In this document: piece by piece, positions 38,813-59,350 of the stretch
How the letters are laid out: each line of letters starts with the position of its first letter
How positions within the stretch are numbered: the first letter of the stretch is position 1
Origin: Pseudomonadota bacterium
GTDB lineage: Bacteria; Pseudomonadota; Alphaproteobacteria; RF32; CAG-239
Direction: 5' to 3'
Length of the DNA stretch: 64,000 bases
Assembly (NCBI GenBank): GCA_018362935.1
Contig: JAHALQ010000007.1
Coordinates: 512-64,511 of the forward strand
Made by a program: the position numbers and the translations under genes
Notes under the pieces: model-generated
What the model was told of the DNA's origin: nothing
The model's database searches: none
The model's input: the letters and a program-made list of their open reading frames with translations, nothing else

Positions 38813-39031
38813 GATATTTTTTTATTTGTGGTAAAAATTGTTATTTAATGCTGGTGGAATATTTTTCACACACCCCGTTCTAAAGCTGCGTCCCGATTTC
38901 GAACCCAGGGTTCAAGTCCCGGGGATAATCCCAACGGGACTGCGCCGCTACGAAAGGCGTTGCCTTTCTACTTGCGCGAACAACTAAGTGTTGCCGCGGA
39001 TGAATCTGTAAGAAGAAAGATGGATTTACAT

Positions 39032-39345
39032 AACTGGGATTCCGGGATTAATCGGGATTTTCGGGGACATATTGGGATAAGCCATTTATAAGAACGTCAA
39101 TTCTAGCACCGTTTACAGCCCGTTTAAATGGCATTTTAAAGGTCAAAAATTTTCTGCGATTAATCATCGGCAATAATTAAGTAATGTGAAAAATGGTTTT
39201 GCCTGATGATAAAATGGTTTTACATAAAGAAAAACAATAAAATAAGTATAAACAACGTAATAGTATCTATCTTTGTGAAATGTCTTTTTAAAACTGGGAT
39301 TTAAAAATGCCTATTTTAAATCCCAGTTAGGTATTAACTGGGATT
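39032..39345. repeat. left-end repeats: AACTGGGATT x4 and a phased GGGAT array
   Basis: AACTGGGATT occurs at 39032, 39292 and 39336, and inverted at 39319-39328. GGGA(T/C) motifs start at 39036, 39044, 39054, 39064 and 39074, giving a spacing of about 10 bp. Confidence 0.6.
39292..39328 (-). terminator. 15-bp perfect hairpin downstream of the repressor gene
   Basis: AACTGGGATTTAAAA-atgccta-TTTTAAATCCCAGTT, 42 nt beyond the repressor stop. The T-tract is weak. Confidence 0.4.
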
Positions 39346-39369
39346 CATTTATTAAAAAGTTTAGACAAA

Positions 39370-39975
39370 TTAAGCTTTACAAATAGCTGCTTTAACCTGT
39401 CCGACAATGTGCAATAATTCTTCTTGCTCAATGTCCCAAGGTGCGTATTCAGCATTTAATGAGATGGCTTTTAATTTATCACCGGCAAGTTGAAGCTTTT
39501 TTATAAAACAGCTGCCATCATATTCAAAAGCATACATACCGTCATTTACAAATTGCCGTACACTCATATCCAATACAGCGATATCTTTGTCATATAGACG
39601 TGGCTGCATAGAATCACCGCGTACTTTTACACCGGCAGCAAACTTTTTCGGAATACCGTATATATCAAAAAAATCTTCAGGAAGAACTAAAGTTGAAATA
39701 ATATTTTCTTGAGAAATAATTGATCCGCAACCTGCAGAAAACTCTACGTCGTAAATATTAATTGTATTTTCGGTTTTATTAATCTGACCTGTTAATACCC
39801 AGTTAATGTCAATACCACTTTGTGCCAAGTTAGAAAGAACTTCTCCGCCTGGCAGACTGTTACCAGCCTCATAACCTTCCCAACTCTTTTTGTGGCACTT
39901 TGCTAAGATTGCCATGTTTGATTGGCTAAGTCCCAGATTTTCTCTAATTTTTTTAAGTCGCTCACCAACTGTCAT
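39370..39975 (-). CDS. prophage repressor (XRE HTH + S24 LexA-like peptidase domain)
   Basis: N-terminal HTH (LGLSQSNMAILAKC) and a C-terminal S24 pattern (VRGDSMQP...K). It is divergent from ner and A. Confidence 0.85.
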   Translation of the reverse strand: MTVGERLKKIRENLGLSQSNMAILAKCHKKSWEGYEAGNSLPGGEVLSNLAQSGIDINWVLTGQINKTENTINIYDVEFSAGCGSIISQENIISTLVLPEDFFDIYGIPKKFAAGVKVRGDSMQPRLYDKDIAVLDMSVRQFVNDGMYAFEYDGSCFIKKLQLAGDKLKAISLNAEYAPWDIEQEELLHIVGQVKAAICKA

Positions 39976-40100
39976 AAAATTTTTCCCAAAAAAACCAATA
40001 AAGGATAAAATATTTCTTGACTACGATAAAATTTTATCCTAAGGTGAATTATCGTTTCGCTAATAGTAACATAAAAAACGAAAATTTAAAGGAAATTTTA
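39976..40100. promoter_or_regulatory. early control region (operators, divergent promoters)
   Basis: A 10-bp inverted repeat, AGGATAAAAT(40002-11)/ATTTTATCCT(40031-40), brackets TTGACT-17 nt-TAAGGT. The ATAAAATTTT motif is repeated. Confidence 0.55.
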
Positions 40101-40304
40101 ATGTGGGATAAGGCCAGAATAAAAATTGAACTGATTAAAAGGGGTTCAAATTTTACTAAAGCCGCGCTGGATGAGGATTTATCATCCGGTGCATGCCGAA
40201 CTGCTTTAGTAAAACCTTTTCCTGCCGGCGAAAGAGCTTTGGCAAAAGCCTTAGATATCTCTGTTGAAGAGTTATTCCCGGAACGTTATCGGGAGGCTAA
40301 ATAA
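40101..40304 (+). CDS. ner: Ner-like DNA-binding early regulator
   Basis: WDKARIKIELIKRGSNFTKAALDEDLSSGACRTALVKPFPAGERALAKALDISVEELFPERY matches the recalled Ner/Nlp pattern. Confidence 0.8.
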   Translation: MWDKARIKIELIKRGSNFTKAALDEDLSSGACRTALVKPFPAGERALAKALDISVEELFPERYREAK

Positions 40305-42418
40305 TGGAAAATTATTTTAGCGCCAAACAATTAGAAGCATTACATTTGACAAGCCTGCCGTCATGCAAGCGATTGATCAATATAAAAGCGACAAAGGAAA
40401 ATTGGCCATTTCGAGCCCGCAAAGGTAAAGGTGGCGGTCGAGAATATAATATTAATGATTTACCAGCTGAAGTACGGTCTGAGTTTTTAGCTAGAAAACA
40501 AAGAAATAAAGAAGAAAAAGTTCATGAAAAGCAAGAAGAAGCAATCGCGTCTTTATTAAAACTCCAAGACGGACAGCTTCAAAAAGCTTATATTCGTGAA
40601 CGAATTGTTCAAGATTATATTATGTTTAAGAAAAGTAGCGGCTTAAGTCATACAAAAGCCAGAGCGGAGTTTTGTGCAAGTTTTAACGATAAAAAGATAC
40701 TTCCTGATAATTCTATCCGTGCCGTTGTCAATAATATTTGTGAAAGAACCTTATTTAATCTGGAAAAAAACTATGAAACAATGGGATTGGCAGGCTTAGC
40801 CGATAATTATGGCAATCGTAAAGGAGCCAGCAAGGTTGAGAGCCGCCCCGAAATTAAGGAGCTAATTTTAGGTCTAATTTATTTTAATCCGGATATTAAA
40901 TGTCACTTAATAATGCGTGGACTCCGAACAAGATACGGTTCAAAGAATCTTCCGTCTTATCGAACGATCCAGAACTGGGTTGCTAAATGGAGACATGAAA
41001 ACGAATCAGTTCTTTTGGCAATTAAAAATCCGGATGCGTGGCGGAATAAGTATCAATCGGCGACCGGTTCTCAGTCTGAAAATATTACCCGCCTTAATCA
41101 GCGTTGGGAATATGACAGTACCCCAACCGATATAATGTTAAATGATGGCAGCCGCCATAACATCGTTGGAGTGATAGACGTATATTCCCGTCGTTTGAAA
41201 TTGTTGGTTTCGAAAACGTCTAATACTCAGGCCGTAACATCCATAACCAGAGCTTGTCTTCTCGAGTGGGGTGTACCTGAAGAGGTGAAGACGGATAACG
41301 GTGCAGACTATGCATCTAAGCACATGAGAAGAGTTTTTGACAGTCTGGAAGTTCGGCAGATATTCTGTCAGCCGTTTACTCCGGAAGGCAAGCCCCATAT
41401 TGAACGAGTGTTTAAGACCTTTTCACATGATGTTTTAGAAATCCTTCCCGGATATATCGGTCATAATGTTAGTGACCGTAAAAATATTGAATCGAGAAAG
41501 TCTTTTGCCGATCATATTATGGGAAAGGCCAAAAATCGGACAGCGGAATACTTGTCTGCAGAAGAACTGCAAGAATTTTGCGATAAGTGGATTGAAAACT
41601 ATTATATGCAAGAACCGCACCGCGGATTAAATAATAAAACACCTCAGTCAATGGTAGACGGTTACAACGGTGAAGTGCGCCGGATTAAAAATGAACGGGC
41701 GCTTGATATACTGCTTTTGCCAACCAGTGGTGACGGTATTCGTACCGTTACTAAAAAAGGCATTGCAATTGAAAATGCTTATTACGACAGCAACGATTTG
41801 GGATTATATATCGGCAAGCAAGTTAAGGTTCTGTATTCTGAAGCAGAGTGGGGCAAAATATATGTATTTACTCCCGAAAGTAAATTTATTTGTGAGGCCT
41901 TTTGTCCGGAACGCAGCGGTATTTCACGTTCAGAAGTTGCTTCAGCCAAAAAGTCACTGCAAAAACGCCTTATCTCCGAGAGTAAGCAGATTATTAAAGG
42001 TTACAGCAAAAAATATATGGTCAAAAACCTTGCTCAGGAAATTGTTAATCAAAAAATTGATAACAACCCGGATATTCTCGCATTTCCTAAAACCGAAGTT
42101 TCTTATGAATCTCGTTTTTTACAAGAGGCAGAAAATATCCTGGCTTCAAAACAGGAAATGCCGGCCAGCCGTAATCTAACCGTTGAAGAACAAAATGTAC
42201 TTGAACAGGCCGAAAAAGCACGGAATGACAATGTTGTCAGCATGCCGGCGACCATTTTGTCCCAAGAAAGATACAAGCATTGGAAAGACCTTAATCAGCG
42301 TTTTCTTAAAGGTGAACGTTTAACAGAAAACGAAAGAAATTTTTATGCCAATTACAAAGAAAGTTCCGATTTTCAGACTCAAGAATTACTTGATGAACTG
42401 GGAATAGGAGCCGTGTAA
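40304..42418 (+). CDS. Mu-type DDE transposase A
   Basis: 704 aa with an N-terminal Mu-type DNA-binding region and an rve-like core (WEYDSTPTD...DVYSRR...TDNGADY...PHIERVF). Confidence 0.9.
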   Translation: MENYFSAKQLEALHLTSLPSCKRLINIKATKENWPFRARKGKGGGREYNINDLPAEVRSEFLARKQRNKEEKVHEKQEEAIASLLKLQDGQLQKAYIRERIVQDYIMFKKSSGLSHTKARAEFCASFNDKKILPDNSIRAVVNNICERTLFNLEKNYETMGLAGLADNYGNRKGASKVESRPEIKELILGLIYFNPDIKCHLIMRGLRTRYGSKNLPSYRTIQNWVAKWRHENESVLLAIKNPDAWRNKYQSATGSQSENITRLNQRWEYDSTPTDIMLNDGSRHNIVGVIDVYSRRLKLLVSKTSNTQAVTSITRACLLEWGVPEEVKTDNGADYASKHMRRVFDSLEVRQIFCQPFTPEGKPHIERVFKTFSHDVLEILPGYIGHNVSDRKNIESRKSFADHIMGKAKNRTAEYLSAEELQEFCDKWIENYYMQEPHRGLNNKTPQSMVDGYNGEVRRIKNERALDILLLPTSGDGIRTVTKKGIAIENAYYDSNDLGLYIGKQVKVLYSEAEWGKIYVFTPESKFICEAFCPERSGISRSEVASAKKSLQKRLISESKQIIKGYSKKYMVKNLAQEIVNQKIDNNPDILAFPKTEVSYESRFLQEAENILASKQEMPASRNLTVEEQNVLEQAEKARNDNVVSMPATILSQERYKHWKDLNQRFLKGERLTENERNFYANYKESSDFQTQELLDELGIGAV

Positions 42419-42527
42419 TCAAAAGTTGTCCGCAAGCTGCAACCTGCGGACAACCCAATTAACATCAGGAGTCCCTACGCCAATAGACAACTCCTGAAAC
42501 TATAACCGAAATTATAGAGGATTAATA

Positions 42528-43271
42528 ATGTCAGATAATATACAAAAAGTCAATAACATCGCAGCATTACAGAATGTTGCAATCATCTTGTTAGCTATAA
42601 AAAAGGCTATGAATAGGCCGGATTATCTTCCCGGTCTTGTGGTTGTTCACGGTCCGAGCGGTTACGGTAAAACCATGGCGTCAAGCTATGCCGCAGCCAA
42701 TTTGAAAGCTTATTTCGTTTCTGCCAAGGCAATTTGGACAAGAAAAACAATGTTGCAGGCTATTCTTGACGAGATGGGAATTCCAGCAAGCAGAACAACC
42801 GCTGAAATGTTTTCTCAAGTTTGTGAAGAATTATCTTGTTCTGGCAAGCCGCTCATCATTGATGAATTTGATTATTGCGTCGATTGCAAAGGACTGATGG
42901 CGTTAACCCGTGATATATATGACAGTTCAGAGACACCTATAATTTTAATAGGTGAGGAAATGCTACCGGCTAAATTAGCACGTGAAGAGCGTTTTCATAA
43001 CCGGATTTTAGACTGGATACCGGCGTTGCCGGCAAGTTTGGAAGACGCGGTAAAACTTCGTACACTCTACTGCGATAAAGTTAAAATTGCCGATGACCTT
43101 TTACAAAAGGTTTGGCAGATATCGGAAGGCCGCGCCCGTCGAATTGTTGTTAATTTGAACAAAATTCAAGATACCATATTAGCCGAAGGCCAAAATGTTG
43201 TTGATCTTAAAGATTGGGGAAAACGTGAGCTTATTAAAGGTGAAGCTCCGGCAATCAGGAGGCTGTCATAA
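42528..43271 (+). CDS. MuB-like AAA+ transposition target-capture ATPase
   Basis: Walker A HGPSGYGKT and Walker B LIIDEFD, immediately after the transposase. Confidence 0.85.
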   Translation: MSDNIQKVNNIAALQNVAIILLAIKKAMNRPDYLPGLVVVHGPSGYGKTMASSYAAANLKAYFVSAKAIWTRKTMLQAILDEMGIPASRTTAEMFSQVCEELSCSGKPLIIDEFDYCVDCKGLMALTRDIYDSSETPIILIGEEMLPAKLAREERFHNRILDWIPALPASLEDAVKLRTLYCDKVKIADDLLQKVWQISEGRARRIVVNLNKIQDTILAEGQNVVDLKDWGKRELIKGEAPAIRRLS

Positions 43272-43852
43272 TGTTGGAAACAGGAAGAAAGCCCGTCAGT
43301 GTTGCGCCCAAAAACCGAAAAATGGTTTGGAAAGTTATCAGAGAATTAAAACATTTTACAATTCGTGATATTGAGGACAGAACTAAAATCCAGCCTAGAA
43401 CAATAACTTCTTATTTGCAGGCGTTAGAACGTGCCGAGATTATTGATAAGAGAGCTGTTTATCAACCGAACAGAGGTTGTTTGCGAACAAATGAATATAA
43501 TCTTCTGAAAGATTTGGGCGCAATGGCTCCGGTCGTCAACAAAGCAGGGAAGCTTATTGAAGATACTCATCAATCAAGAATCTGGCGTGCCATCCGGATA
43601 TTAAAGAATTTTACATTAAAAGACATTGTGGCAACCGCTTCTCAAGATAATGACCCGGTTTCACTCACGGCTGCTGATCAATATTTGAATTATCTGAAAA
43701 AAGCAGGATACCTCGTCAAAAGAAATAACGAAAAAGTCTTTCATCTTGTTTCATCAATGAACAAAGGGATTCAGGCTCCGCAAATTCAACGCATCAAGCA
43801 GATCTATGATCCAAATATTGATGTCGTAGTCTGGAATAGTGAGGAGGCCTGA
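43271..43852 (+). CDS. early protein with two tandem winged-helix-like repeats
   Basis: Internal duplication: MVWKVIRELKHFTIRDI...YLQALERAEII versus RIWRAIRILKNFTLKDI...YLNYLKKAGYLV. Confidence 0.6.
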   Translation: MLETGRKPVSVAPKNRKMVWKVIRELKHFTIRDIEDRTKIQPRTITSYLQALERAEIIDKRAVYQPNRGCLRTNEYNLLKDLGAMAPVVNKAGKLIEDTHQSRIWRAIRILKNFTLKDIVATASQDNDPVSLTAADQYLNYLKKAGYLVKRNNEKVFHLVSSMNKGIQAPQIQRIKQIYDPNIDVVVWNSEEA

Positions 43853-43853
43853 C

Positions 43854-44216
43854 ATGTCAGCAATTGAAACCGCTAAACAATATTGGGGCGAATCTTTGCC
43901 GGACTGGATTGAGGTACTTGCAAACGAAGCTGATAAAACTTCCCAAAATAAAATTGCTTATAAAATCGGTAAATCATCGGCTGCCATAAGCCAAATCTTA
44001 AAAAAATCTTATCCGGGCACGATTGCCAATCTTGAAGCAGCCGTTCGCGCCAACCTGATGAATGGCAGCCATGACTGTCCGTTTTACGGTACGATTTTAA
44101 TTCGGGAATGCTTGGATGTACAGTCCCGTCCGTTCAGTAACTCAGGAAATCCAACCAAAATCAGACTTTTCAAAGCCTGCCGCAACTGTATACACCACAA
44201 AAAACAAGGAGAATAA
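43854..44216 (+). CDS. early protein, putative HTH DNA-binding
   Basis: GAGGAGG RBS, HTH-like QNKIAYKIGKSSAAISQILK, and C-terminal Cys residues. Confidence 0.5.
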   Translation: MSAIETAKQYWGESLPDWIEVLANEADKTSQNKIAYKIGKSSAAISQILKKSYPGTIANLEAAVRANLMNGSHDCPFYGTILIRECLDVQSRPFSNSGNPTKIRLFKACRNCIHHKKQGE

Positions 44217-44219
44217 ACT

Positions 44220-44420
44220 ATGCTGTCACAAGATGCCAAAAACTTAACCAATTCAATTCGTGATCTTCAACATAAAGCCGAACAAATGGCTCACGTTTTG
44301 GATTGTATCAAAATCAATCTTCAAAGTCTGGCCGACAGTTTAACTGTCTTAGAGCGCAATACGATTGTCAGTCAGCCTTCAGAAAGGCCTACTTATGAAG
44401 ATTATCAAAACATTGCCTGA
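44220..44420 (+). CDS. hypothetical early protein (coiled-coil-like)
   Basis: 66-aa ORF packed in the operon. Confidence 0.4.
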   Translation: MLSQDAKNLTNSIRDLQHKAEQMAHVLDCIKINLQSLADSLTVLERNTIVSQPSERPTYEDYQNIA

Positions 44421-44501
44421 TTGCTTAAGCAGTCAGACAAAAAACCGATTGCTGGCAAGAGCAATCTTTAATGTAACCCCCAGAAGAAAAGGAAAATTAA
44501 A

Positions 44502-44750
44502 ATGTCAGAAACTGAAGTTGGCGGCATTGCTGCTGATCGTCTGCGTTCTCTTGTTGAGCGCATTGAACGGCTAAATGAGGAGAAAGCTGCGCTTGAAAGC
44601 GATATCCGCGATATTTTTGCAGAGGCCAAATCTGCCGGCTTTGACGTTAAAATTATACGCGAAGTTATTAGGCTGCGCAAAATGAACGCTGCCGACCGTG
44701 ATGAGCAGGAAAGTTTGCTCGAAATCTATCGTAAAGCTCTGGATATATAG
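44502..44750 (+). CDS. DUF2312/GapR-family small DNA-binding protein
   Basis: LRSLVERIERLNEEKAALESDIRDIFAEAKSAGFDVKIIREVIRLRK is the classic DUF2312 pattern. Confidence 0.8.
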   Translation: MSETEVGGIAADRLRSLVERIERLNEEKAALESDIRDIFAEAKSAGFDVKIIREVIRLRKMNAADRDEQESLLEIYRKALDI

Positions 44751-44759
44751 GAGAAAGCA

Positions 44760-45398
44760 ATGACAGAAATAAACGAAAACGAATACCTAACCGACGCTGA
44801 AGGTCGTTTGGTACCGATTAAAATGATTAAAGATATCGACCGGCAACGCGACAATCTGGTGAAAGAATATATAGCTAAGGCAAAAGCTTTGTCTGCCAGT
44901 ATTCAGCGTTTCAAAACCGAGAGCTTTAACGATGTGGCTGCGCATATCAGTTTGGCTGCCGAAAAATATAATCTCAAAATAGGCGGGGAAAAAGGAAATG
45001 TGACGCTGATGAGTTATGACGGGCAGTATAAAATAATCCGTTCAGTCGCTGAAAAGCTTGATTTTAACGAAAGTCTGGCCGCCGCTAAGATTATGATTGA
45101 TAATTGTATCAGCAAATGGTCTGCCGGCGTTAATCAGCATCTGAAGGCCCTGGTAACCAGAACTTTCAAAACTGACCGCGAAGGCAAGATTTCAACGGTT
45201 AAGGTTCTGGATCTGATGACGGTTAAAATTAATGATGACGAGTGGCAAATGGCGATGCAGGCCTTGTCGGACAGTATGTCGGTCAGTTCTACCAAATCAT
45301 ATATTCGGTTTTACGAACGTCAGGTTGACGGCAGCTATAAGGCCATACCTCTGGACATTGCTGCCGATTTTCAGATTTCGCCGGCTAACTCCAAATAA
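44760..45398 (+). CDS. DUF3164-like Mu-type early protein
   Basis: Size, position and sequence are reminiscent of the DUF3164 proteins of Mu-like prophages (from memory). Confidence 0.5.
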   Translation: MTEINENEYLTDAEGRLVPIKMIKDIDRQRDNLVKEYIAKAKALSASIQRFKTESFNDVAAHISLAAEKYNLKIGGEKGNVTLMSYDGQYKIIRSVAEKLDFNESLAAAKIMIDNCISKWSAGVNQHLKALVTRTFKTDREGKISTVKVLDLMTVKINDDEWQMAMQALSDSMSVSSTKSYIRFYERQVDGSYKAIPLDIAADFQISPANSK

Positions 45399-45469
45399 AC
45401 AGTAAACACTATAGGCGAAACGGCGGTGTCTTTATCCGCCGTCTGCGGAAGATTAACCACTCCGCACTG

Positions 45470-45943
45470 ATGAGCCAGGTTAAACAAATGACAAAAAGAG
45501 AAATGACACAAGAACGCAAGATTTTACTGGGGAAGATTCACATAGCCAAGAAAGCTTTAGGTCTTGATGAAGATACCTATCGGTCAATCATTTTTGCTGC
45601 AGTTGGCAAAAACAGCGGCAAAGACTGCACAGACCGTCAGTTGCTTAAGATTGTTAAAGCCTTTGAAGCTAAAGGTTGGAAGCATCGAAAAAATCCGAAC
45701 CAATACCGCAAAGTTCCGACCGGACGGGCAGATTTGGAAAAAATCTATGCGTTATGGGGAAGGTTGCAGGATATGGGCGTTGTAAAGTCGACAAATCTGG
45801 TTGACCTGGATAAATGGGTCAGTCGGATGACCGGAGGTAAACGCAGTTCTGCTCAATTTCTTGAAGAAAGCTGGGCGCAAAAGATAATCGAGTGTCTGAA
45901 ACAATGGATCGCCCGCGAGGAAAGGAGAGGGCACAATGAATAA
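45470..45943 (+). CDS. GemA/gp16-like protein (DUF1018)
   Basis: KIHIAKKALGLDEDTYRSII...DCTDRQLLKIVKAFEAKGW pattern. Confidence 0.7.
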   Translation: MSQVKQMTKREMTQERKILLGKIHIAKKALGLDEDTYRSIIFAAVGKNSGKDCTDRQLLKIVKAFEAKGWKHRKNPNQYRKVPTGRADLEKIYALWGRLQDMGVVKSTNLVDLDKWVSRMTGGKRSSAQFLEESWAQKIIECLKQWIAREERRGHNE

Positions 45944-46364
45944 CTTTACCGGTGTTTTGGCTGACATTGAAAATGTTATCGGCACCGCCGCCACTCTCCA
46001 GCTGGTAAAAGAACGCGGCGGCACCAAAATAAATATTCCTAAAAAACCGACCGAAAAGTGTCAATTGGTTCAGATTATCGGATTGTCGTTGGCGGAAAAG
46101 CTCAGTTTGGAATTTGGATCCGGAGAAGTTTTAATTCCGATGGGGCATTTCAAAGGCATGGGCAGAAAGAAGGTCTTAGCGGCTCAGATGCTTGAACAAG
46201 GATTAAGCAGCAATAAGATTGCTGCAGAGCTGGATATTCACGAAAGAACTGTCCGGCGGGTGAAAGAAAAAAACTACTTAGGATTACCCCTCATTGAATA
46301 TATTGAAGAACAAGAAAGGAAAGAAAAAGAACATGGGAAAAGTTGTTGCCACACTCACGCTTGA
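45936..46364 (+). CDS. Mor/C-family transcriptional activator
   Basis: Mor-like N-terminus (VIGTAATLQLVKERGGTKINIPK) and a C-terminal HTH (LSSNKIAAELDIHERTVRR). Confidence 0.7.
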   Translation: MNNFTGVLADIENVIGTAATLQLVKERGGTKINIPKKPTEKCQLVQIIGLSLAEKLSLEFGSGEVLIPMGHFKGMGRKKVLAAQMLEQGLSSNKIAAELDIHERTVRRVKEKNYLGLPLIEYIEEQERKEKEHGKSCCHTHA

Positions 46365-46536
46365 GTGTTTTACGGATCATAAAGGGAATCTCGAGATGCA
46401 TTATGTATCCGATTATTCCGACCAGATAAAAGAAGAACATAAAAAAGCGTGTCAAACTATTTTTAGAATTGTCAGAGATTCGTTTGAATTTGACATTGCT
46501 ATGGCCGCGCAAACTCAAAATATCACCAGACAGTGA
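46333..46536 (+). CDS. hypothetical small protein
   Basis: 67-aa ORF overlapping the mor 3' end. Confidence 0.35.
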   Translation: MGKVVATLTLECFTDHKGNLEMHYVSDYSDQIKEEHKKACQTIFRIVRDSFEFDIAMAAQTQNITRQ

Positions 46537-46543
46537 GGAAATA

Positions 46544-46741
46544 ATGACACCAAATGATAATAATATGCCCCGCGGGCAGGTTCCGGCGACGATATTAAAA
46601 GACAGTGAGCGCCAACCCTGCGAAATCTGGACCCGTGTTATGGGCTACTTCCGCCCGCTGTCAGAGTTCAATATCGGTAAAAAATCCGAATTTTTTAGCC
46701 GAAAATATTTTAAGGAAAGTAAAACGCACAAACAAAAATAA
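46544..46741 (+). CDS. 65-aa stand-alone NrdD C-terminal glycyl-radical-motif protein
   Basis: GAGGAA RBS. CEIWTRVMGYFRPLSEFNIGKKSEFFSRKYF parallels the recalled NrdD C-terminus TRRVCGYLG...FNAGKQEEVKRR. Confidence 0.6.
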   Translation: MTPNDNNMPRGQVPATILKDSERQPCEIWTRVMGYFRPLSEFNIGKKSEFFSRKYFKESKTHKQK

Positions 46742-46786
46742 TCTTTCGGCAGATTGAAAAATTATTCTGTTTTATTTTGATGTATA

Positions 46787-47221
46787 TTATTTACTGACCA
46801 TCATCACAACAAGATTACCAACAATATTGAACGAAAATGTTTTATCTTCAATTATAGTTTTTTGTTGAGATTTTGTAGCTGCTTCTACAAAACAATTACC
46901 AAAAAATTCGGATGCTTTTTCTGAATCGTCTACCAGTTGAGGGAGGACAATTGTTGCGTTTAGCATTGCTTCTTGCGAAAGAACTTTGTCTTTATTTGTG
47001 TCAATCGCAAACATTACGCCTTTAACGTTGTTGTTTTCTGTTGTTATCAGAACTTTTGCAAGTTCGTTCTTTGTGCCTGTGTAAGTATTGGTTTCGGGAT
47101 TAAATTCAAAGGTATAGTTACGGTCTTCCAAAAGTTTTTTAAATTCGTTGACAGCAACATCTTTTGCCCACGCATTGAAACTAAAACAAATTGAAGTAAG
47201 GAATAAGAGTATTTTTTTCAT
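46787..47221 (-). CDS. secreted protein encoded by a reverse-strand AT-rich moron
   Basis: GGAGG RBS and signal peptide MKKILLFLTSICFSFNAWA. It is the only minus-strand gene inside the prophage body. Confidence 0.6.
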   Translation of the reverse strand: MKKILLFLTSICFSFNAWAKDVAVNEFKKLLEDRNYTFEFNPETNTYTGTKNELAKVLITTENNNVKGVMFAIDTNKDKVLSQEAMLNATIVLPQLVDDSEKASEFFGNCFVEAATKSQQKTIIEDKTFSFNIVGNLVVMMVSK

Positions 47222-47330
47222 AAAACAGCCTCCGTTAAAATAAGCAAAGATTAAAATAATAGCAGGGATAAGTAAATAAAAATTATTGAAATATTAACCT
47301 CTGTCGGTTAACCTGAAAGCCTAAAAACAT

Positions 47331-47498
47331 GATTACAGCGGCTTTCGCACCCGTCAGATTTGCGATTTTTTTTGTATCTGCAATGTGGCGGATGAGAGCT
47401 GAAAATATATTGAATATCAGCCAAAGCCTACTGTAATCGGCTTTTAGTGAGTCCGCCACCTCTCAAATTTGCGTGGCAATTTCTAAGAAAGATTACAG
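47331..47498. repeat. three copies of GATTACAG in the promoter region of the Rha-like gene
   Basis: Direct copies at 47331-38 and 47491-98, and an inverted copy at 47431-38. The flanking ...ATTTGCG segments are also repeated. Confidence 0.45.
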
Positions 47499-47500
47499 AT

Positions 47501-48151
47501 ATGAAAAATTTAGTTCAAATATCAAATAATAACCAGTTAACCACCACCAGTTTAAAGATTGCTGAAATATTTGGTCGGCAACATAAGCATATTTTAGAAA
47601 ATATACAACATTTTGAAATTCCAGCAGATTTTATTCAGCCGAATTTTCGGCCGATTAAATATGTTGATAAAAAGGGGCGTGAACAAAAGATGTATGAAAT
47701 CACCCGTGACGGTTTCACGCTGCTGGCGATGGGCTTCACCGGCAAAAAAGCGATGCAGTTCAAAATCGACTTTATCAAGGCTTTTAACGCGATGGAGGCG
47801 GAGCTTTTAAACCGCGCCGCTCTTAAAAAGCCCACTTTTGCCGAAACATTGCTCGGGAGTCGTGAGCTTAAAAAGGAAAATCAGGCGCAAAAAGCGCTCA
47901 TTGCCGATATGTCGGCAGAACTCTTAAAATCCCGCCCGCTTTGGTGTCGGGTGTTAAAATATAAACGGCTGGGGCTCTCGACTGCCGAGGTGGGCAAATT
48001 GGTAGGACGTTCTCGTGCTTCGGTCAAGCTCTATTGCGCCGCTTTGCGTAAATATGGCCTTCTTAATCCGTTGCCGCAACCGGCCGAACAATTGGTGCTA
48101 AATTTTAGTGCGGCGGAAACCATCCCCGGCGTTGTTTTTGCGGGAGAATAG
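47501..48151 (+). CDS. Rha-family phage regulator with C-terminal HTH extension
   Basis: NNQLTTTSLKIAEIFGRQHKHILENI is Rha-like. The C-terminal LGLSTAEVGKLVGRSRASVKLY is HTH-like. Confidence 0.65.
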   Translation: MKNLVQISNNNQLTTTSLKIAEIFGRQHKHILENIQHFEIPADFIQPNFRPIKYVDKKGREQKMYEITRDGFTLLAMGFTGKKAMQFKIDFIKAFNAMEAELLNRAALKKPTFAETLLGSRELKKENQAQKALIADMSAELLKSRPLWCRVLKYKRLGLSTAEVGKLVGRSRASVKLYCAALRKYGLLNPLPQPAEQLVLNFSAAETIPGVVFAGE

Positions 48152-52096: not shown

Positions 52097-53616
52097 TGTT
52101 TAACCTGATTAAAAGCTATTTAAATAAAAAGCTGCTGACTTCTAATGAGGCCGGCAGTCCGATCATGGGCGTGCGCGACCAGCTTAATTCCAATCCGGGA
52201 ACCAACTTAACGCCGGTTAAACTGGCGCGTATTTTAAGAGATTCCGGCGAAGGTGATATCTTGGAATTGATGGAACTGGCGGAAGAAATTGAGGAAAAAG
52301 ACCTTCAGTATCAAACCGTTTTAAGCACCCGCAAGCGGACCGTCGCGCAGCTGGACATTTCGGTCGAGCCGGCAGACGATACCCCGGCGGCCAAGATGCA
52401 GGCCGATTTTGTTAAAAGTTTTCTCAACCGTGATACGCTGGAAAGCGAGATTTTTGATATGCTGGATGCGGTCGGCAAAGGTTTTTCGGTCACTGAAATT
52501 ATATGGGAAACCTCCAGCAGCCAGTGGATGCCGAAGTCCTTAAACTGGGTTGATCCGCGATGGATTACTTTTCGGCAAAACGATCTGTCCCGACCTTTGT
52601 TAAAGGTGGAGGGCGGTTACAAAGAGTTGACGCCTTTTAAATACATCTATACCACCATTAAGGCCAAATCCGGGCTGGATATCCGCGGCGGTCTCATCCG
52701 CGGCATCACCTGGGCCTATTTGTTCAAGAACTTTTCGCTCAAAAACTGGGTTTCTTTTCTGGAAGTCTACGGTCATCCGTTTCGGGTCGGCAAATATGGC
52801 AGAAACGCCACCGACAAAGACAAACGCAATTTGCTGCGCGCAGTTCTCAATCTTGGCGCCGATGCTGCTGCCATCGTGCCGCAGGATATGCTGATCGAAT
52901 TCATTAAAAATGAAACCGGTTCCGGCGGCGCGGCTTTCAAAGACCATGCTTCCTATTTTGACCAGGCGATTTCAAAAGCGGTTTTGGGGCAAACCACCAC
53001 CACCGACGCCATTTCGGGCGGCCATGCCGTCAGCCAGGAACACAACGAAGTCCGCATGGATATCGCCAACTCCGACGCCCGCCAGCTGGCTGCGGTTTTG
53101 AACCGCGATCTGATCCGGCCGATGATAGACCTTAATTTTGGGCAACAAAAGGCTTATCCGAAACTGCATATCGGCAATCCGGAAACCGAAGACACTTCCA
53201 AACTGACCGAAAGCGTGGCGCGTTTGATGCCCTACGGCTTTACGGTTTCGGCCAAGCAGCTGCGTTCCAAACTGGGCTTAAATGCCCCGGAAGACGCCGA
53301 TGACGTTTTCGGACAAAGCGGCGGCTTTTCTCAACTGCCGGCGTTTAATCAGGCCTTAAACAAACCTTTAAAGCCGGTTAACAGGGATTTTATTGATGAC
53401 CTCGGCGATGACGAGCTGAAAGAATGGCAGCCGAAAGTTGAACCGGTCAAAAAAAAGATTGAAGAACTGATTGCCCGGCTGCTGGATGAGGGCAAAAGCC
53501 TGGAAGACCTGGAAAAAGAGCTGACCAAGTTGGAAGTTTCGCCGGACGAGTTGGCACAAAGTCTGGCAAAAAACTCAATGGCCGCCTATCTGACAGGGCT
53601 TAAAGATGTCGAATAA
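52096..53616 (+). CDS. portal protein (Mu gp29-like, DUF935)
   Basis: 506 aa, placed between the terminase and the F-like gene. Confidence 0.8.
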   Translation: MFNLIKSYLNKKLLTSNEAGSPIMGVRDQLNSNPGTNLTPVKLARILRDSGEGDILELMELAEEIEEKDLQYQTVLSTRKRTVAQLDISVEPADDTPAAKMQADFVKSFLNRDTLESEIFDMLDAVGKGFSVTEIIWETSSSQWMPKSLNWVDPRWITFRQNDLSRPLLKVEGGYKELTPFKYIYTTIKAKSGLDIRGGLIRGITWAYLFKNFSLKNWVSFLEVYGHPFRVGKYGRNATDKDKRNLLRAVLNLGADAAAIVPQDMLIEFIKNETGSGGAAFKDHASYFDQAISKAVLGQTTTTDAISGGHAVSQEHNEVRMDIANSDARQLAAVLNRDLIRPMIDLNFGQQKAYPKLHIGNPETEDTSKLTESVARLMPYGFTVSAKQLRSKLGLNAPEDADDVFGQSGGFSQLPAFNQALNKPLKPVNRDFIDDLGDDELKEWQPKVEPVKKKIEELIARLLDEGKSLEDLEKELTKLEVSPDELAQSLAKNSMAAYLTGLKDVE

Positions 53617-54748
53617 TTTTGTCCCCAAAGAAGTTTTAGCTTTTCTGCAACGCAAAAAATTAAAGCCGACCGATCATTGGACCGATCTTTGGCACGGCGA
53701 GCATGCCCGCTATTTTACGGTAGCCCGCTCGGTTTATGCCGATATTGTCAATGATGTCTATAACGAGGTGGTAAAAGCGATTGCCGAGGGCAGTACACTG
53801 AAGACTTTTCAAGAGCGGTTAACCCCGATTTTGCAGACAAAAGGCTGGTGGGGCAGGGCGGAGGACGGCGTACAACTCGGTTCGCCGCGACGATTACGCA
53901 CAATCTATGATACTAATTTACGAACTTCTTACGCCGCTGCCCGCTGGGAACGGATCCAGCGACGCAAAAAGTCGCGGCCGTATTTGCGGTATGTCTGCGT
54001 ACTGGATGAGAAAACACGCGCCGAGCATCGCCGCTGGCATGGTCTGATTTTACCGGTTGACGATCCGTTCTGGTCAACGCACTATCCGCCCAACGGCTGG
54101 CATTGCCGTTGTATGGTTCAGCAGGTCAGTAAAGAAGATATCGACGCCAACGGCTGGACGGTCGGCGAAAGTCCGGAAGAAAGCTATCGCAGCTGGGAAA
54201 ATACCGCCACCGGTGAGGTCAAGCAAATACCGGTCGGCATCGCTCCTGGCTTTGATTATAATGTCGGAGTGGCTAATTTGCGGGTCAAAGCTCGTGAGCA
54301 AGTGGCGGAAAAGCTTAGAAAAATCAATCCGGCCATTGCCGCAACCGCTGTTAACAGGCTTGTGCGCTGCGAAGATTTTGCTGATTTTTATAAAAATCCT
54401 CAGGGTTATTTTGCAGTAGGTGTTGTAGACAACATAATTAAACAGGCCTTAAAGGCCGAAGCGTCCGTTTGCTGTCTGTCTGACGAAACACTGCTTAAAA
54501 ATCAGGAACATCACCCGGATTTGACAATTGATGATTATAGATTGATGAACCATGTTCTGAGCGATTATGATATTTTAGTGCAGGATACCGCCAAAAGCGT
54601 GGTTGCGGTCAAAAAGATTGCCGATAAAAATTATTGGCTGGCGGTGAAAGTCACCCGCAAAGGCAACGAAATTTTTACGACGACGTTTCACTTGGCAGAA
54701 GACCGTCAGCTGCGCAAACTGATGACCAAAGGAAAGCGTTTAAAATAG
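53606..54748 (+). CDS. MuF/SPP1 gp7-family head morphogenesis protein with C-terminal extension domain
   Basis: Core motif PPNGWHCRCMV. Residues from about 250 to 380 form a separate predicted domain. Confidence 0.8.
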   Translation: MSNNFVPKEVLAFLQRKKLKPTDHWTDLWHGEHARYFTVARSVYADIVNDVYNEVVKAIAEGSTLKTFQERLTPILQTKGWWGRAEDGVQLGSPRRLRTIYDTNLRTSYAAARWERIQRRKKSRPYLRYVCVLDEKTRAEHRRWHGLILPVDDPFWSTHYPPNGWHCRCMVQQVSKEDIDANGWTVGESPEESYRSWENTATGEVKQIPVGIAPGFDYNVGVANLRVKAREQVAEKLRKINPAIAATAVNRLVRCEDFADFYKNPQGYFAVGVVDNIIKQALKAEASVCCLSDETLLKNQEHHPDLTIDDYRLMNHVLSDYDILVQDTAKSVVAVKKIADKNYWLAVKVTRKGNEIFTTTFHLAEDRQLRKLMTKGKRLK

Positions 54749-54827
54749 AAAAAGAAGTGTGGCAGAGCTGGACACTTCTGCACGCGAGCACCGCCAGGCG
54801 GGTCTACGGCCTCCAGATTCACCGTGT

Positions 54828-54856
54828 TTCACACTTCTTATACTCTATCATATAAT
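54828..54856 (+). promoter_or_regulatory. near-consensus sigma70 promoter for the inserted membrane-protein gene
   Basis: TTCACA-17 nt-TATAAT. Confidence 0.55.
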
Positions 54857-54989
54857 AGCAAAACAAATTTTTCAAGTTTTTAATTCATTTTTCAAAAAGC
54901 CGTTTTTATAAGCCTTAGACAATCAACTTTACTTTTTAGGGGTAAAGTTATATAAGTAACGCAATTGATTAATCTACCCCATTTAAAGG

Positions 54990-55688
54990 GTGTTTAACGA
55001 AAGCGTTAAGATGAAAGAAAAAAACGAGCTAACTCCTAAAAGTGACGAACAAATCCAAAAAGAAGCAAGAGAAGAGGTTGTTAAGGCTTTAACTTATTAC
55101 AGAAACACGTTTGGAGAAGAATATGCAAATATATCTTCCGAGCTTGTTAATTTTACTGACAGAATTTATCAGAATATTCAATCGGCGATTAATTATGCTT
55201 TTTTATTAAACAGTGGCGCGGCGGCTGCTCTTTGCAGTATGCTAAACGGTCATGATTCATTAGTCTGTAGTTTGCTTTTTTTCTTTGCCGTAGGAATAAT
55301 TTTGACCTCCGTATCTTTAGGTCTTATTTCTACATCTCGTTCTTATTATTTAGAGTATCTAACAGTAGAAAAAGAACGTTTTAACGGAATGCTCTACTTA
55401 TTGGACAAAGAGATTGAAGATGAAACCTTTAAACCGCAAGAAACGGTATGCTTTGAAAAAGTTGAAGAATATTTTGGCAAAAGTTCCGATCTGGAAGAAT
55501 CATATAAGAAATATCAGAATTTTTCAAGAAGAGCCGTTATCGCAGCCTTTGTTGTTTTTTTTGTGACTTTTTTCATAGGACTTTTTACCTTTGCTCAAAG
55601 TTCAGTTCCAAATCAGCAAATCTCCTATTCCGATTTATCTTATCCGGGCGTTCAAATTACCCCGCTTCCCGTAACAAAACCTAACTAG
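54990..55688 (+). CDS. three-TM membrane protein in accessory cassette (start GTG 54990 or ATG 55011)
   Basis: AT-rich ORF with hydrophobic segments AINYAFLLNSGAAAALCSML, LVCSLLFFFAVGIILTSVSLGLI and AVIAAFVVFFVTFFIGLFTFA. Confidence 0.6.
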   Translation: MFNESVKMKEKNELTPKSDEQIQKEAREEVVKALTYYRNTFGEEYANISSELVNFTDRIYQNIQSAINYAFLLNSGAAAALCSMLNGHDSLVCSLLFFFAVGIILTSVSLGLISTSRSYYLEYLTVEKERFNGMLYLLDKEIEDETFKPQETVCFEKVEEYFGKSSDLEESYKKYQNFSRRAVIAAFVVFFVTFFIGLFTFAQSSVPNQQISYSDLSYPGVQITPLPVTKPN

Positions 55689-55717
55689 GTTTTGTTTAAA
55701 CCAATTCTTTAACAAAA

Positions 55718-55738
55718 GCAACGCGGACACCTGTCCGT
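55718..55738 (+). promoter_or_regulatory. late-promoter dyad, copy 2 (upstream of protease/scaffold gene)
   Basis: GCAACGCGGAC-ACCT-GTCCGT. A TATGTT hexamer starts about 32 nt from the dyad centre. Confidence 0.5.
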
Positions 55739-55774
55739 CTATTTAAATACCCTCTATCGGCCTATGTTGAAAGC

Positions 55775-56836
55775 ATGACCGATACACGTTTTTACATATC
55801 TCACAATGCTTTGCAGCTGGCGCTCAATCCGGACAATTCGGTGCCGGATGAAGTGCAGCTGCTTCCCTACGGCAAAATCAAAGGCCGCGACGGCCGCAAA
55901 TTCGCCATGTTCGACATTGCGGCGGTCATTTCCAATACGCTTAAATGGTACAACCCCGATTCCGGTTCTGACAAGTTGGATCTGGTAATTGATTATGAAC
56001 ATCAGACTTTGTTTACGGACAAAAACGGCGCACCGGCGCCGGCAGCAGCCTGGATTAAAGAACTGGTAAACAAAGGTAAAGATGGTCTTTGGGGTAAAGT
56101 CGAATGGACGGACAGAGCCAAAAAGCAAATTGCCGGGCGGGAATATCGCTATTTGTCACCGGTGTTTCGTCATGACGAAAAAGGTAATGTTCTTGCCTTG
56201 ACTTGTGCCGGATTGACAAATTACCCGAACCTTGAATTACAAGCGTTCAACAAATCTAACCTTAACAATCAGGAGGACAAACAAGTGGATATACTTGCAA
56301 AACTCATTCAGCTGTTAGGTTTGCCTGAGAGTTCCAGCGAACAAGATGTTTTTGATGCCGTAACCCAGCTGAAGTCAGCCGGCGGACAGGCCTCATTGAA
56401 CAAAATCGCCGGACTTTTAGCAACTGCAGCAGATGAACAATCAATCATTACTGCCATCAATAAGCAAAAGGCGGAAAGCGTCGACGCGACTAAATATGCT
56501 GCTTTGAGCCAGCAGATTACCGAACTCAAAGAGCAGGTTGCCGCCAATAAAGCGGAATCTGCCGTCAGTCAGGCAATTGCCGACGGTAAGTTGATACCGG
56601 CCTTAAAAAACAATGCCTTGGCTATTCACAAAAGCCTGGGCGAAGCGGCCTTTAACGACTTTGTCGCCAAAATGCCGCAGTTGGCACTGAACAAATCCGA
56701 TGCCCCGACCGGCACTCCGCCGGCCAGCGAAGGCAGTCTGACCGGTGTTGAACTGGCCGTATGCAAAGCTTTGGGCATCTCGCAAGAGGATTATAAGAAA
56801 ACCTTAAAACAGGAGAAAGAAGATGCCGCAGTTTAA
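55775..56836 (+). CDS. Mu gpI-like head protease/scaffold protein
   Basis: VQLLPYGKIKGRDGRKF N-terminal pattern, an Ala/Gln/Lys-rich scaffold-like C-terminus, and a position before the major head gene. Confidence 0.75.
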   Translation: MTDTRFYISHNALQLALNPDNSVPDEVQLLPYGKIKGRDGRKFAMFDIAAVISNTLKWYNPDSGSDKLDLVIDYEHQTLFTDKNGAPAPAAAWIKELVNKGKDGLWGKVEWTDRAKKQIAGREYRYLSPVFRHDEKGNVLALTCAGLTNYPNLELQAFNKSNLNNQEDKQVDILAKLIQLLGLPESSSEQDVFDAVTQLKSAGGQASLNKIAGLLATAADEQSIITAINKQKAESVDATKYAALSQQITELKEQVAANKAESAVSQAIADGKLIPALKNNALAIHKSLGEAAFNDFVAKMPQLALNKSDAPTGTPPASEGSLTGVELAVCKALGISQEDYKKTLKQEKEDAAV

Positions 56837-58918: not shown

Positions 58919-59350
58919 ATGGTAAGCGTCAGCGCAAAATTTAAAGAGTTGGACAAGTATATTGAGAACTTCAAAAGCCTTAATGATGAGGCCAAAGAGA
59001 ACCTGAACGACCACATTGCCGGCGTTTTGGAAAGTTCTACCGTTCGGCGTTTTGAAACTGAGAAAGATCCGGAAGGCAAAAGCTGGAAGCCTAACCTTCG
59101 CGGCGGCAAAATTCTAACGCTGCACGGCTATTTATGCGGCAGCATTATCGGCCAGGCCACCAAAGATTATGCCGAAGTCGGTTCGGTACTGGAGTATTCG
59201 CGTATTCATCAGGAAGGAGGCGTGATTCAATTTGTTAAGAAAAAAGGCTCTGTCACCATGCCGGCGCGTCCTTACTTGGGCGTTTCAAAACAGGACAAAG
59301 CCGCTATCGGCCGCGTGATCGAAAGTTTTATTAACGGAGCTTTATCATGA
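58919..59350 (+). CDS. virion morphogenesis protein (Mu gpG / P2 gpS family)
   Basis: Size, position and the ...PARPYLG motif. Confidence 0.6.
   Translation: MVSVSAKFKELDKYIENFKSLNDEAKENLNDHIAGVLESSTVRRFETEKDPEGKSWKPNLRGGKILTLHGYLCGSIIGQATKDYAEVGSVLEYSRIHQEGGVIQFVKKKGSVTMPARPYLGVSKQDKAAIGRVIESFINGALS

Follow-up and report, generated by a model that had tools for sequence, protein, structure and literature searches.

The gap considered here separates the gene for the MuF head protein from protease gene I of a Mu-like prophage. It spans positions 54749–55774 (1026 nucleotides, nt) of a 64-kb stretch of DNA from an uncultured gut alphaproteobacterium, the whole of which is referred to as the window. 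Its most interesting item appears to be a structured RNA that a preliminary description had taken for the boundary of an inserted cassette; as judged from its copies, this RNA is widespread, supported by covariation and tied to MuF genes with a PBECR3 domain. The acr-aca locus of Pseudomonas lies just upstream of the protease/scaffold gene. RGP G, a region of the transposable phages, is low in GC and holds anti-CRISPR genes (PMC4378225). The gap in the window is similar to RGP G in that it contains a low-GC accessory region within the head block, the contents of which vary among close relatives and with which a helix-turn-helix (HTH) gene is associated (g9/aca1). As with the acr-aca locus, the slot ends shortly before gene I (107 nt) and in relatives an XRE HTH gene is found directly upstream of I. 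Unlike the acr-aca locus, the cargo is a polytopic membrane protein of 225 amino acids (aa) rather than a small soluble inhibitor (about 50–150 aa) and is accompanied by no HTH gene, whilst the slot itself lies between genes F and I, as gene G has moved, and is flanked by a conserved RNA gene.

The cargo is also comparable with morons and exclusion proteins such as HK97 gp15, P22 SieA and lambda RexB. It is optional, deviant in composition, equipped with a promoter-like site, placed between essential late genes and predicted to encode a fast-diverging inner-membrane protein, but no sequence or fold similarity was found to any of these three. In Mu, the region between G and I represents the same junction of two late head operons, a comparison made by position and not by sequence; within it, a gyrase cut site is annotated in the Mu record, together with a terminator and the late promoter P_I. 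In contrast to the locus described here, F and G of Mu overlap and are without the RNA motif.

MuF toxin genes are usually found with small downstream immunity open reading frames (ORFs) of less than 150 aa, and proteobacterial MuF proteins often have uncharacterised C-terminal extensions (PMC5576092). The window MuF resembles such polymorphic toxins, and polyvalent phage proteins with PBECR domains, in being a head protein of a temperate phage with a C-terminal nuclease-like extension. Unlike them, it has no small immunity ORF beside it and its constant neighbour is a structured RNA, predicted to be encoded on the opposite strand. This RNA recalls lambda OOP RNA, RatA and SR4, as it is a small RNA gene which, from its own predicted promoter, runs towards a protein gene and would stop at or across the 3' end of that gene. 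It differs from these in that its overlap with MuF is only a few nt and in that its four-way junction and pseudoknot would be needless for plain antisense pairing. It also differs from type I toxin–antitoxin systems, since the partner is a 380-aa head protein and not a small membrane toxin. The self-cleaving ribozymes enriched near Mu-like phage genes (of the hammerhead, twister, twister-sister, pistol or hatchet class) share with the motif the same neighbourhood, a compact pseudoknotted fold, invariant junction nucleotides and occasional tandems (PMC10085705), yet the motif matches no Rfam ribozyme model on either strand.

A conserved RNA motif behind the MuF gene

From the comparison of its copies, the GC-rich element that follows MuF is a conserved RNA motif that combines four helices with a loop–loop pseudoknot. 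Its parts are given below in plus-strand coordinates.

54753–54838, most likely minus strand: structured RNA motif of ~86 nt (covariance model R1, 70.7 bits, E=4.5e-15)
54753–54761 with 54830–54838: helix P1
54762–54766 with 54777–54781: helix P2
~54791–54794 with 54798–54801: helix P3
54805–54809 with 54822–54826: helix P4
54768–54772 (CTGGA) with 54812–54816 (TCCAG): pseudoknot of 5 bp, P2 loop to P4 loop

In the predicted fold P1 is the closing helix, and the hairpins P2–P4 are arranged around a four-way junction. All copies share a layout in which P1 (7–9 bp) is followed by P2 (5 bp), ACGCGAuC, the variable hairpin P3, yC, P4 (UACGG/CCGUG), UUU and the return strand of P1. The inverted repeat that had first drawn attention to the element is present, with its right arm, CACACTTCTT, at 54830–54839, one base to the left of where it had been placed; the competing inner hairpin with ACACTTC that had been proposed alongside it is not conserved and is absent from the relative L183.

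The first copies were obtained by searching IMG/VR with a 15-mer common to the window, L011 and L014 (AGATTCACCGTGTTT). Around one third of the 83 matches had the same extended context, which gave 29 distinct copies in Mu-like contigs. One copy, in L016, is located beside a MuF only 32% identical to that of the window. A covariance model, R1, was built from 15 copies and the count then rose to 68. The model found the motif in all new members of the clade and in L012 and L013, where it lies behind an extra 437-aa gene, and each of the 46 species-representative genomes retrieved with a looser pattern also scored with it. The motif occurs in prophages of more than 10 phyla, with hosts that include Desulfobacterota, Beta- and Alphaproteobacteria, Nitrospirota, Bacteroidota, Chlorobiota and Campylobacterota. 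It is also carried by two phages in culture, Mannheimia vB_MhM_3927AP2 (about KP137440:16720–16830; 47.8 bits) and Haemophilus parasuis SuMu (about JF832915:17306–17403; 32.9 bits), in a region that is unannotated in both records. Nucleotide queries with the locus and motif against GenBank phages gave no match, and the copies in cultured phages surfaced through a protein search followed by the covariance model. A reduced variant is found behind MuF in L003, L005 and the Ochrobactrum phage POA1180. Tandem pairs are seen in L188 (5641–5727 and 5732–5818), L191 (6146–6235 and 6378–6467), L232 (594–684 and 766–855) and L038 (4329–4414 and 4423–4509, the second copy being degenerate).

Across 65 distinct copies, 94.5% of pair cells are standard-paired, compared with 41–48% when the partners are slid. 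Compensatory changes are found at 22 of the 28 pairs, with 408 doubly changed cells, and none of 500 shuffles reaches the observed values. The covariation score is 0.561 as against 0.137 for the shuffles and at most 0.114 for the slid controls, on an alignment that was fitted by the model and a sample that was picked in part by conserved words. P4 is invariant in the word-selected sample but covaries in SuMu and 3927AP2. Pairing in the pseudoknot reaches 98%, with at least nine complementary versions: CUCCC/GGGAG, which is present in most copies, CUGGA/UCCAG, which belongs to the window clade, and CUGCC/GGCAG, CUCUC/GAGAG, CUCGA/UCGAG, CUCCA/UGGAG, CAGCC/GGCUG, CUCGC/GCGAG and CUCAC/GUGAG. Folded as a lone sequence, the 90-nt element is not unusual (z = -1.4), and the RNA is taken as real because of the comparison across copies and not because of its stand-alone fold.

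The window copy has no match in Rfam 15 on either strand at E<=10, and six other copies have none at E<=1 or E<=10. ARAGORN detects no tRNA at the motif. A tRNA, a known ribozyme and a riboswitch were rejected as identities for the motif, as ARAGORN and the Rfam 15 models gave nothing. A full-text literature search for the core sequence of the motif returned no paper. The RNA was not found described anywhere and is absent from Rfam 15.

A 73-aa ORF (54634–54855, plus strand), in the -1 frame relative to MuF, is open across the whole of the motif, and TTTAAAA precedes the MuF stop. The motif was considered as a coding extension of MuF, reached by readthrough or by a -1 frameshift at TTTAAAA, and rejected, since the frame of the 15-mer relative to the stop varies among phages and the slippery site is not conserved. 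On this comparison, the open -1 frame is judged to be coincidental.

Strand and transcription of the RNA

Three transcription-related features border the motif.

54847–54875, minus strand: sigma-70-like promoter of the RNA, with -35 TTGAAA (54875–54870), a 17-nt spacer and -10 TATGAT (54852–54847); 10/12 match
54740–54752, minus strand: U-rich tract UUUUCUAUUUUAA (also given as UUUUCUAUUUU) right after P1, overlapping the MuF stop; possible 3' end of the RNA
54828–54856, plus strand: rightward promoter TTCACA-17-TATAAT, with -35 at 54828–54833 and -10 at 54851–54856; 11/12 match

The RNA is likely to be transcribed leftward, antisense to MuF. When the variable helices are read in the sense of MuF, the non-Watson–Crick cells comprise 49 A.C and only 6 G.U, and such an excess is characteristic of an RNA that is read from the opposite strand. 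An antisense -10 hexamer (at least 5/6; TATAAT, TATACT or TATATT) is positioned 4–10 nt before P1 in 31 of 64 copies, as against 5/64 on the sense strand and 2–7/64 at control offsets, and many copies have a good -35 as well, such as TTGACA-16-TATAAT in L220. In 40 of 65 copies (p~0.02) the consensus structure reaches a lower energy when folded as the antisense strand. In the window the predicted start is at ~54840, 1–2 nt ahead of P1, and an equivalent leftward promoter, TTGATT-17-TATAAT, is found in L183, L011 and L012. A U-tract (>=5 U in the 8 nt past the motif) is present on the minus strand in 22 of the 64 copies and is not universal. It is the wobble asymmetry together with the promoter position that suggests the strand and the transcription of the RNA.

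The rightward promoter had been noted in the preliminary description as near-consensus, and the window has only two sites, this one included, with at most one mismatch from the sigma-70 consensus, where 0.30 would be expected by chance. The other, TTGACA-17-CATAAT at 26101–26129 (minus strand), is located in the host part. The rightward -35 is made of the UUU junction of the RNA and the first bases of P1, and the -10 overlaps that of the RNA promoter (54847–54852). The overlap of the -10 boxes places the two promoters back to back, and from their sequences they probably cannot be occupied simultaneously. A promoter-like site, TTCACC-17-TATAAT, is found in L183, the slot of which is empty, and a weaker one lies ~40 nt further right in L011 and L012. 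As the promoter lies in the conserved left block, which is shared with L183, it was not brought by the cargo.

Association of the RNA with MuF-PBECR3 genes

The gene upstream of the motif in the window is as follows.

53606–54748, plus strand: MuF (gp30-like) head protein; Pfam Phage_Mu_F E=8e-27, PBECR3 E=1.5e-7; PHROG 220 'minor head protein and DNA pilot'

The C-terminal domain of this protein, at aa ~270–380, is PBECR3-like, with a score of 31.8 bits that lies just above the Pfam cut-off of 30, and a nuclease-like role is predicted for it. Nearly all of the 65 distinct copies of the motif adjoin the stop codon of a MuF gene with a PBECR3-like C-terminal domain. Among the first 29 copies, 25 have a MuF homologue as the upstream ORF and 19 have G as the downstream gene. 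The start of the motif falls between -6 and +6 nt from the MuF stop in most copies, so that the overlap with the ORF is only 0–6 nt, and where G is the next gene it starts 24–50 nt past the motif. Of the 68 upstream ORFs, 32 gave a match to the C-terminal domain in a single-sequence query. By Pfam, MuF proteins adjacent to the motif have PBECR3-like domains, including that of L071, which has a very divergent N-terminal domain. MuF proteins with other C-termini are without the motif, namely Mu F (MuF_C domain), L009 (PBECR2) and the short MuF proteins of L006–L008.

A minority of copies are not behind MuF (L234 6553–6642, L209 5641–5732 and L068 1466–1563). The ORFs upstream of these resemble a dihydroorotase/amidohydrolase, an amidase or an endolysin-like protein, and they may represent rearranged or degraded prophages or other contexts. 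Stand-alone PBECR3 genes beside the motif in L217 and L196 were also considered; they have no start codon and look like frameshifted MuF genes in metagenome-assembled genomes, and so they are not independent evidence. The leading guess is that the RNA is a partner or regulator of the nuclease-like domain of MuF.

The accessory slot and its states in relatives

The Mu-like prophage fills the window from ~39 kb onwards, with the repressor and transposase followed by terminase, portal, MuF, protease I and the major head protein. Its early region (39000–48000) is markedly richer in AT (GC 0.34–0.45) than the late region and the host flank (~0.5). The non-phage part of the window resembles metagenome-assembled genomes of uncultured gut Alphaproteobacteria, most closely one from roe-deer caecum at 89% protein identity. 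The host was placed by way of a housekeeping protein; DNA-uptake sequences of Neisseria and Haemophilus and over-represented k-mers yielded nothing. The right-hand neighbour of the gap is the first gene of the next head operon.

55775–56836, plus strand: Mu-type head protease/scaffold gene I; Pfam Mu-like_Pro E=9.5e-78

Pfam supports both flanking genes at the limits given to them previously, with the MuF stop at 54748 and the start of I at 55775. In this clade the homologue of Mu gene G is found at 58919–59350, after a gp36-like gene (PF05069, Phage_tail_S family, in L001), and because G has moved downstream F and I are direct neighbours. The GC content is 0.32–0.36 over 54800–55700, compared with ~0.5 in the flanks.

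Relatives with MuF proteins 63–85% identical to that of the window were fetched from IMG/VR and assemblies. Between F and I they have the following contents.

L183/184/185 and L187: 369–396 nt, no gene
L188: 773 nt, no gene
L014 and L182: ~1 kb, one XRE-type HTH gene
L011 and L101: 1.8 kb, HTH gene and a 230/231-aa membrane protein
L012 and L013: 2.4–2.5 kb, 437/455-aa orphan gene and HTH gene
window, L001 and L002: 1026 nt, membrane protein alone

With these five states the junction is a variable accessory hotspot, as had been anticipated. In support of the earlier reading, the insert also deviates in base composition and is preceded by the near-consensus rightward promoter. The remark that it has no HTH partner holds for 54749–55774, which contains no HTH ORF, but does not extend to the relatives, where an HTH gene occupies the slot in most cases. 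It is not correct that the full 1 kb stands apart from the conserved head module, since 54749–54862 and 55668–55774 are kept in all close relatives, including those with empty sites. The first 90 nt of the left block (54749–54862) are 92% identical to those of L183. Between the two blocks is a stretch of about 800 nt that is unique to this phage.

54863–55667, plus strand: variable accessory slot with an AT-rich insert; by alignment and blastn no similarity to relatives here save for segments shared with L011

Since the RNA motif stays behind MuF at empty slots and in very distant phages, it belongs, on this distribution, to the phage backbone. Presence and absence among relatives, base composition and the promoter-like site show the cargo of the slot, as read from sequence, to be a moron-type accessory gene.

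The 437/455-aa orphan gene (L012 5146–6513 and L013 3437–4750) has no match in Pfam or PADLOC and is located between the MuF stop and the RNA motif. As it lies to the left of the RNA, it reveals a second insertion point on the other side of the motif. The XRE HTH genes (HTH_3/XRE) just upstream of gene I are of two types, of 110 aa and 170–175 aa (L011 5558–6085, L012 6937–7449, L013 5172–5504, L014 5558–5890 and L182 6034–6546). They are preceded by a long leader with a strong hairpin of 12–13 bp (CTCCACCTTT...AAAGGTGGAG), a layout that recalls aca genes.

The whole gap of the window differs from that of L001 (9739–10764) by 2–3%, and the flanking MuF, protease and portal genes differ by 6–10%. 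The differences amount to 16/678 in the ORF, 8/262 in the leader, 1/86 in the RNA and 0/86 in the right block. The gap thus diverges less than the flanking core genes, which suggests a recent recombinational exchange of the region between the window phage and the L001 lineage, or a sweep.

The right block contains two further elements.

55668–55774, plus strand: conserved right block of 107 nt; 83–87% identity to L011–L014, L182 and L183, whatever the cargo
55673–55696: perfect 24-bp palindrome AACAAAACCTA AC TAGGTTTTGTT (inverted repeat I15), enclosing the stop codon of the cargo gene (55686–55688)
55724–55737: conserved GC hairpin CGGACACCTGTCCG, terminator-like on the minus strand only; the loop varies (T/A) and the stem is kept

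The palindrome is kept in L011–L014, L183 and L187 and is unique in the window. This single occurrence led to the rejection of the palindrome as a repeated late-activator site. It lies ~43–46% along the ~36-kb prophage, and the strong central gyrase site of Mu is in the equivalent G–I gap. No canonical plus-strand terminator was detected after the cargo, where only the palindrome and the hairpin are found. By analogy, the right block probably separates transcription units and starts the I operon.

The membrane-protein gene

The cargo gene of the window and its parts are listed below, with aa numbers referring to the 225-aa protein.

55011 (ATG)–55688, plus strand: orphan membrane-protein gene, 225 aa; the alternative GTG start at 54990 gives 232 aa
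54925–54949, plus strand: leader hairpin AACTTTAC / GTAAAGTT, upstream of the gene
55257–55328 (aa 83–106): strong membrane span by hydropathy
55530–55601 (aa 174–197): strong membrane span by hydropathy
55194–55247 (aa 62–79): weak membrane span by hydropathy
55614–55685, plus strand: conserved C-terminal tail QQISYSDLSYPGVQITPLPVTKPN

The ATG at 55011 is also the called start in L001 and L002, and the leader segment 54927–54959 (33 nt) shares 85% identity with the leader ahead of the membrane gene in L011. With 225 codons open at 34% GC, a lean towards synonymous changes (9 synonymous and 7 non-synonymous differences relative to L001) and a related family with a shared tail, the ORF is, by these sequence measures, a real gene. 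In agreement with the preliminary description it has no recognised family, as neither Pfam nor PHROGs nor PADLOC gives a significant match. Among 5.8 billion proteins searched, the only match was a 97% identical copy (P0001) from the same phage in two Logan assemblies. A HMMER search of 1.84 billion representatives added only P0122, which matches over the last ~65 residues; P0123, a further protein from the representative search, was set aside as a low-complexity repeat protein.

The three membrane segments described earlier are supported in part: two are strongly hydrophobic, and the third (aa ~62–79) is marginal and derives from the positive-inside rule. The distribution of positive charge favours an N-in, three-span, C-out topology, so that the protein is modelled as probably having three spans. 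The tail, QI(S/F)xSDLSYP(G/N)VQI, is kept in the window protein, P0122, P0124 and P0125; the rest of P0122, P0124 and P0125 falls to 38–52% identity and is unalignable with the window protein. In hhalign, the window family and the L011 family align over TM3 and the tail only. Phages without the gene keep only its last 4–5 codons in their DNA, so the tail is conserved at the protein level.

Proposed organisation of the gap

The gap is on balance probably a composite, in which an RNA gene, an accessory slot and a conserved right block have differing histories. In the arrangement proposed, a small RNA gene of ~86–90 nt directly behind the MuF stop would encode a four-way junction RNA with a pseudoknot, made leftward from its own sigma-70 promoter, from ~54840 to near the MuF stop. 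The slot to the right of the RNA promoter would hold the cargo, which could be transcribed from the rightward promoter and presumably also by late read-through. The product would be a 225-aa inner-membrane protein, predicted to be N-in/C-out, with its short conserved tail facing the periplasm on that topology. Most likely, going by its sequence, it would be made in the lysogen and would act at the membrane as a superinfection-exclusion or defence determinant. The right block would end both leftward and cargo transcription and launch the I operon.

It is also conceivable, though unlikely, that the ~90-nt RNA is cloverleaf-like, with its four helices and a D-loop/T-loop-style contact, and serves as a dedicated partner of PBECR3 that inhibits the domain, acts as its decoy or is co-packaged with the injected head protein; the slot would be wired to it through the back-to-back, mutually exclusive promoters. 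If true, this would make the RNA an 'immunity' factor or a cofactor for a toxin domain delivered by the phage, a kind of module that has so far not been described. An alternative of equal newness is that the motif is a new class of self-cleaving ribozyme.

A number of points weigh against the proposed organisation. For the RNA, the strand call is statistical and an invariant U.G at the base of P4 exists on the MuF-sense strand only, whilst a good -10 box is present in only about half of the copies and a U-tract in only about a third. With gene G 24 nt past the motif in many phages, the sense strand is certainly transcribed too, as late mRNA. The co-occurrence of RNA and PBECR3 could be functional or could reflect shared descent of one phage lineage. 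For the rightward promoter, the -35 is partly forced by conserved nucleotides of the RNA (UUU and P1), and because the promoter region is AT-rich the match is less surprising than the whole-window statistic implies. The palindrome is no canonical intrinsic terminator on the plus strand. As for the membrane protein, it has no detectable homology to any exclusion or defence protein. Its single-sequence AlphaFold2 model is all-helical, and at a pLDDT of 63.7 (low confidence) uninformative; in the PDB, Foldseek retrieved nothing beyond generic long-helix bundles (E>0.08). The sole PADLOC '2TM effector' match is that of the L011 cousin P0122 (E=6e-6), which is not shared by the homologues P0124 and P0125.

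The features seen in the preliminary description are real, yet they do not make up one cassette. In that description the GC-rich repeat was the left end of an insert (an insertion scar, an end like that of a miniature inverted-repeat transposable element, or a cis-regulator), followed by its own promoter, leader and gene. The three elements do lie next to one another, with the -35 reaching into the right arm of the repeat. However, the element and the promoter region belong to the backbone, being present also at empty slots (L183 and L187), the element is found in distant Mu-like phages with gene G directly after it, and L012 and L013 carry an extra gene between MuF and the element. Moreover, the element shows covariation of an RNA type rather than the features of a transposon end, and there is no second copy in the window. 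The empty-site relatives refute the single cassette, which is regarded as extremely improbable. Less easily dismissed, if still unlikely, is a role for the motif on the MuF-sense strand within the late polycistronic mRNA, either as a self-cleaving ribozyme of a new class or as a cis element that couples MuF termination to the next gene. The tight placement of the motif at the MuF stop with G shortly beyond, the certain late transcription of the sense strand, the U.G that closes P4 on that strand and the tandem copies in L188, L191, L232 and L038 are all consistent with such a role. So too is the report that hammerhead and twister are most strongly associated with Mu-like phage genes and that three further classes occur in such intergenic regions (PMC10085705). 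In contrast, the prevalence of A.C over G.U in the variable helices, the positioned -10 box and the slightly more stable antisense fold favour the other strand. A role bound to one downstream cistron is disfavoured by the varying downstream gene (G, I, HTH, membrane protein or nothing), and no Rfam ribozyme model matches.

For the membrane protein three other functions may be considered. It had been suggested to be an immunity partner of the MuF C-terminal domain, in keeping with the passing of the Pfam PBECR3 threshold by the window MuF and with the small putative immunity ORF that usually follows MuF toxin-domain genes (PMC5576092). Such an ORF would be expected to be below 150 aa and immediately downstream (PMC5576092), whereas the gene here encodes a polytopic protein of 225 aa and lies 262 nt downstream, beyond the RNA gene and promoters. 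What invariably adjoins this type of MuF is the RNA and not a protein. From the immunity proteins of colicins, CdiA and barnase, a membrane-embedded inhibitor is not expected for a cytoplasmic RNase-type domain. What decides against immunity is that L014, L182 and L183 have MuF-PBECR3 proteins 81–85% identical to that of the window and lack the gene; the suggestion is rejected on this basis and is highly implausible. A late lytic function, such as holin-like timing or a membrane anchor in assembly or release, with expression through read-through from the head operon instead of from the prophage, would suit a gene that is oriented like the late genes, sits between two late operons and has no detected plus-strand terminator between MuF and itself. 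This is distinctly unlikely, as the gene is dispensable (absent from close relatives), the lysis genes of the phage are elsewhere, upstream of terminase, and a near-consensus host-type promoter lies directly ahead; fast divergence and a conserved, predicted periplasmic tail suit conflict better than assembly. Quite improbable, too, is a pore-forming abortive-infection effector of the CBASS-type 2TM/SLATT class, controlled in relatives by an HTH repressor. It draws on the match of P0122 to PADLOC 'Effector 2TM' (E=6e-6), on the XRE-type HTH gene that precedes P0122 and on a similar architecture, with an N-terminal helical region and a TM hairpin with an FLLN(G/S)xAA motif. The window protein, however, has no PADLOC match at E<=10 or E<=1 and no Pfam SLATT match, P0124 and P0125 likewise give no PADLOC match even at E<=1, the two families are joined over TM3 and the tail only, and this phage has no cyclase or sensor partner and no HTH gene. 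A superinfection-exclusion or defence function made in the lysogen is preferred, as a prediction.

Significance

The accessory hotspot before the protease gene is now seen outside Pseudomonas as well. In this uncultured gut alphaproteobacterium it holds HTH regulators and fast-evolving membrane proteins rather than known anti-CRISPRs, which makes the slot a place to seek new exclusion or anti-defence functions. The RNA represents a widespread family that is missing from Rfam, its copies coming from prophages of more than 10 phyla as well as from two cultured phages of Pasteurellaceae, and it sits in a neighbourhood that has already given three ribozyme classes. As the constant neighbour of this type of MuF, the conserved pseudoknotted RNA is a testable candidate for the control of such a domain.

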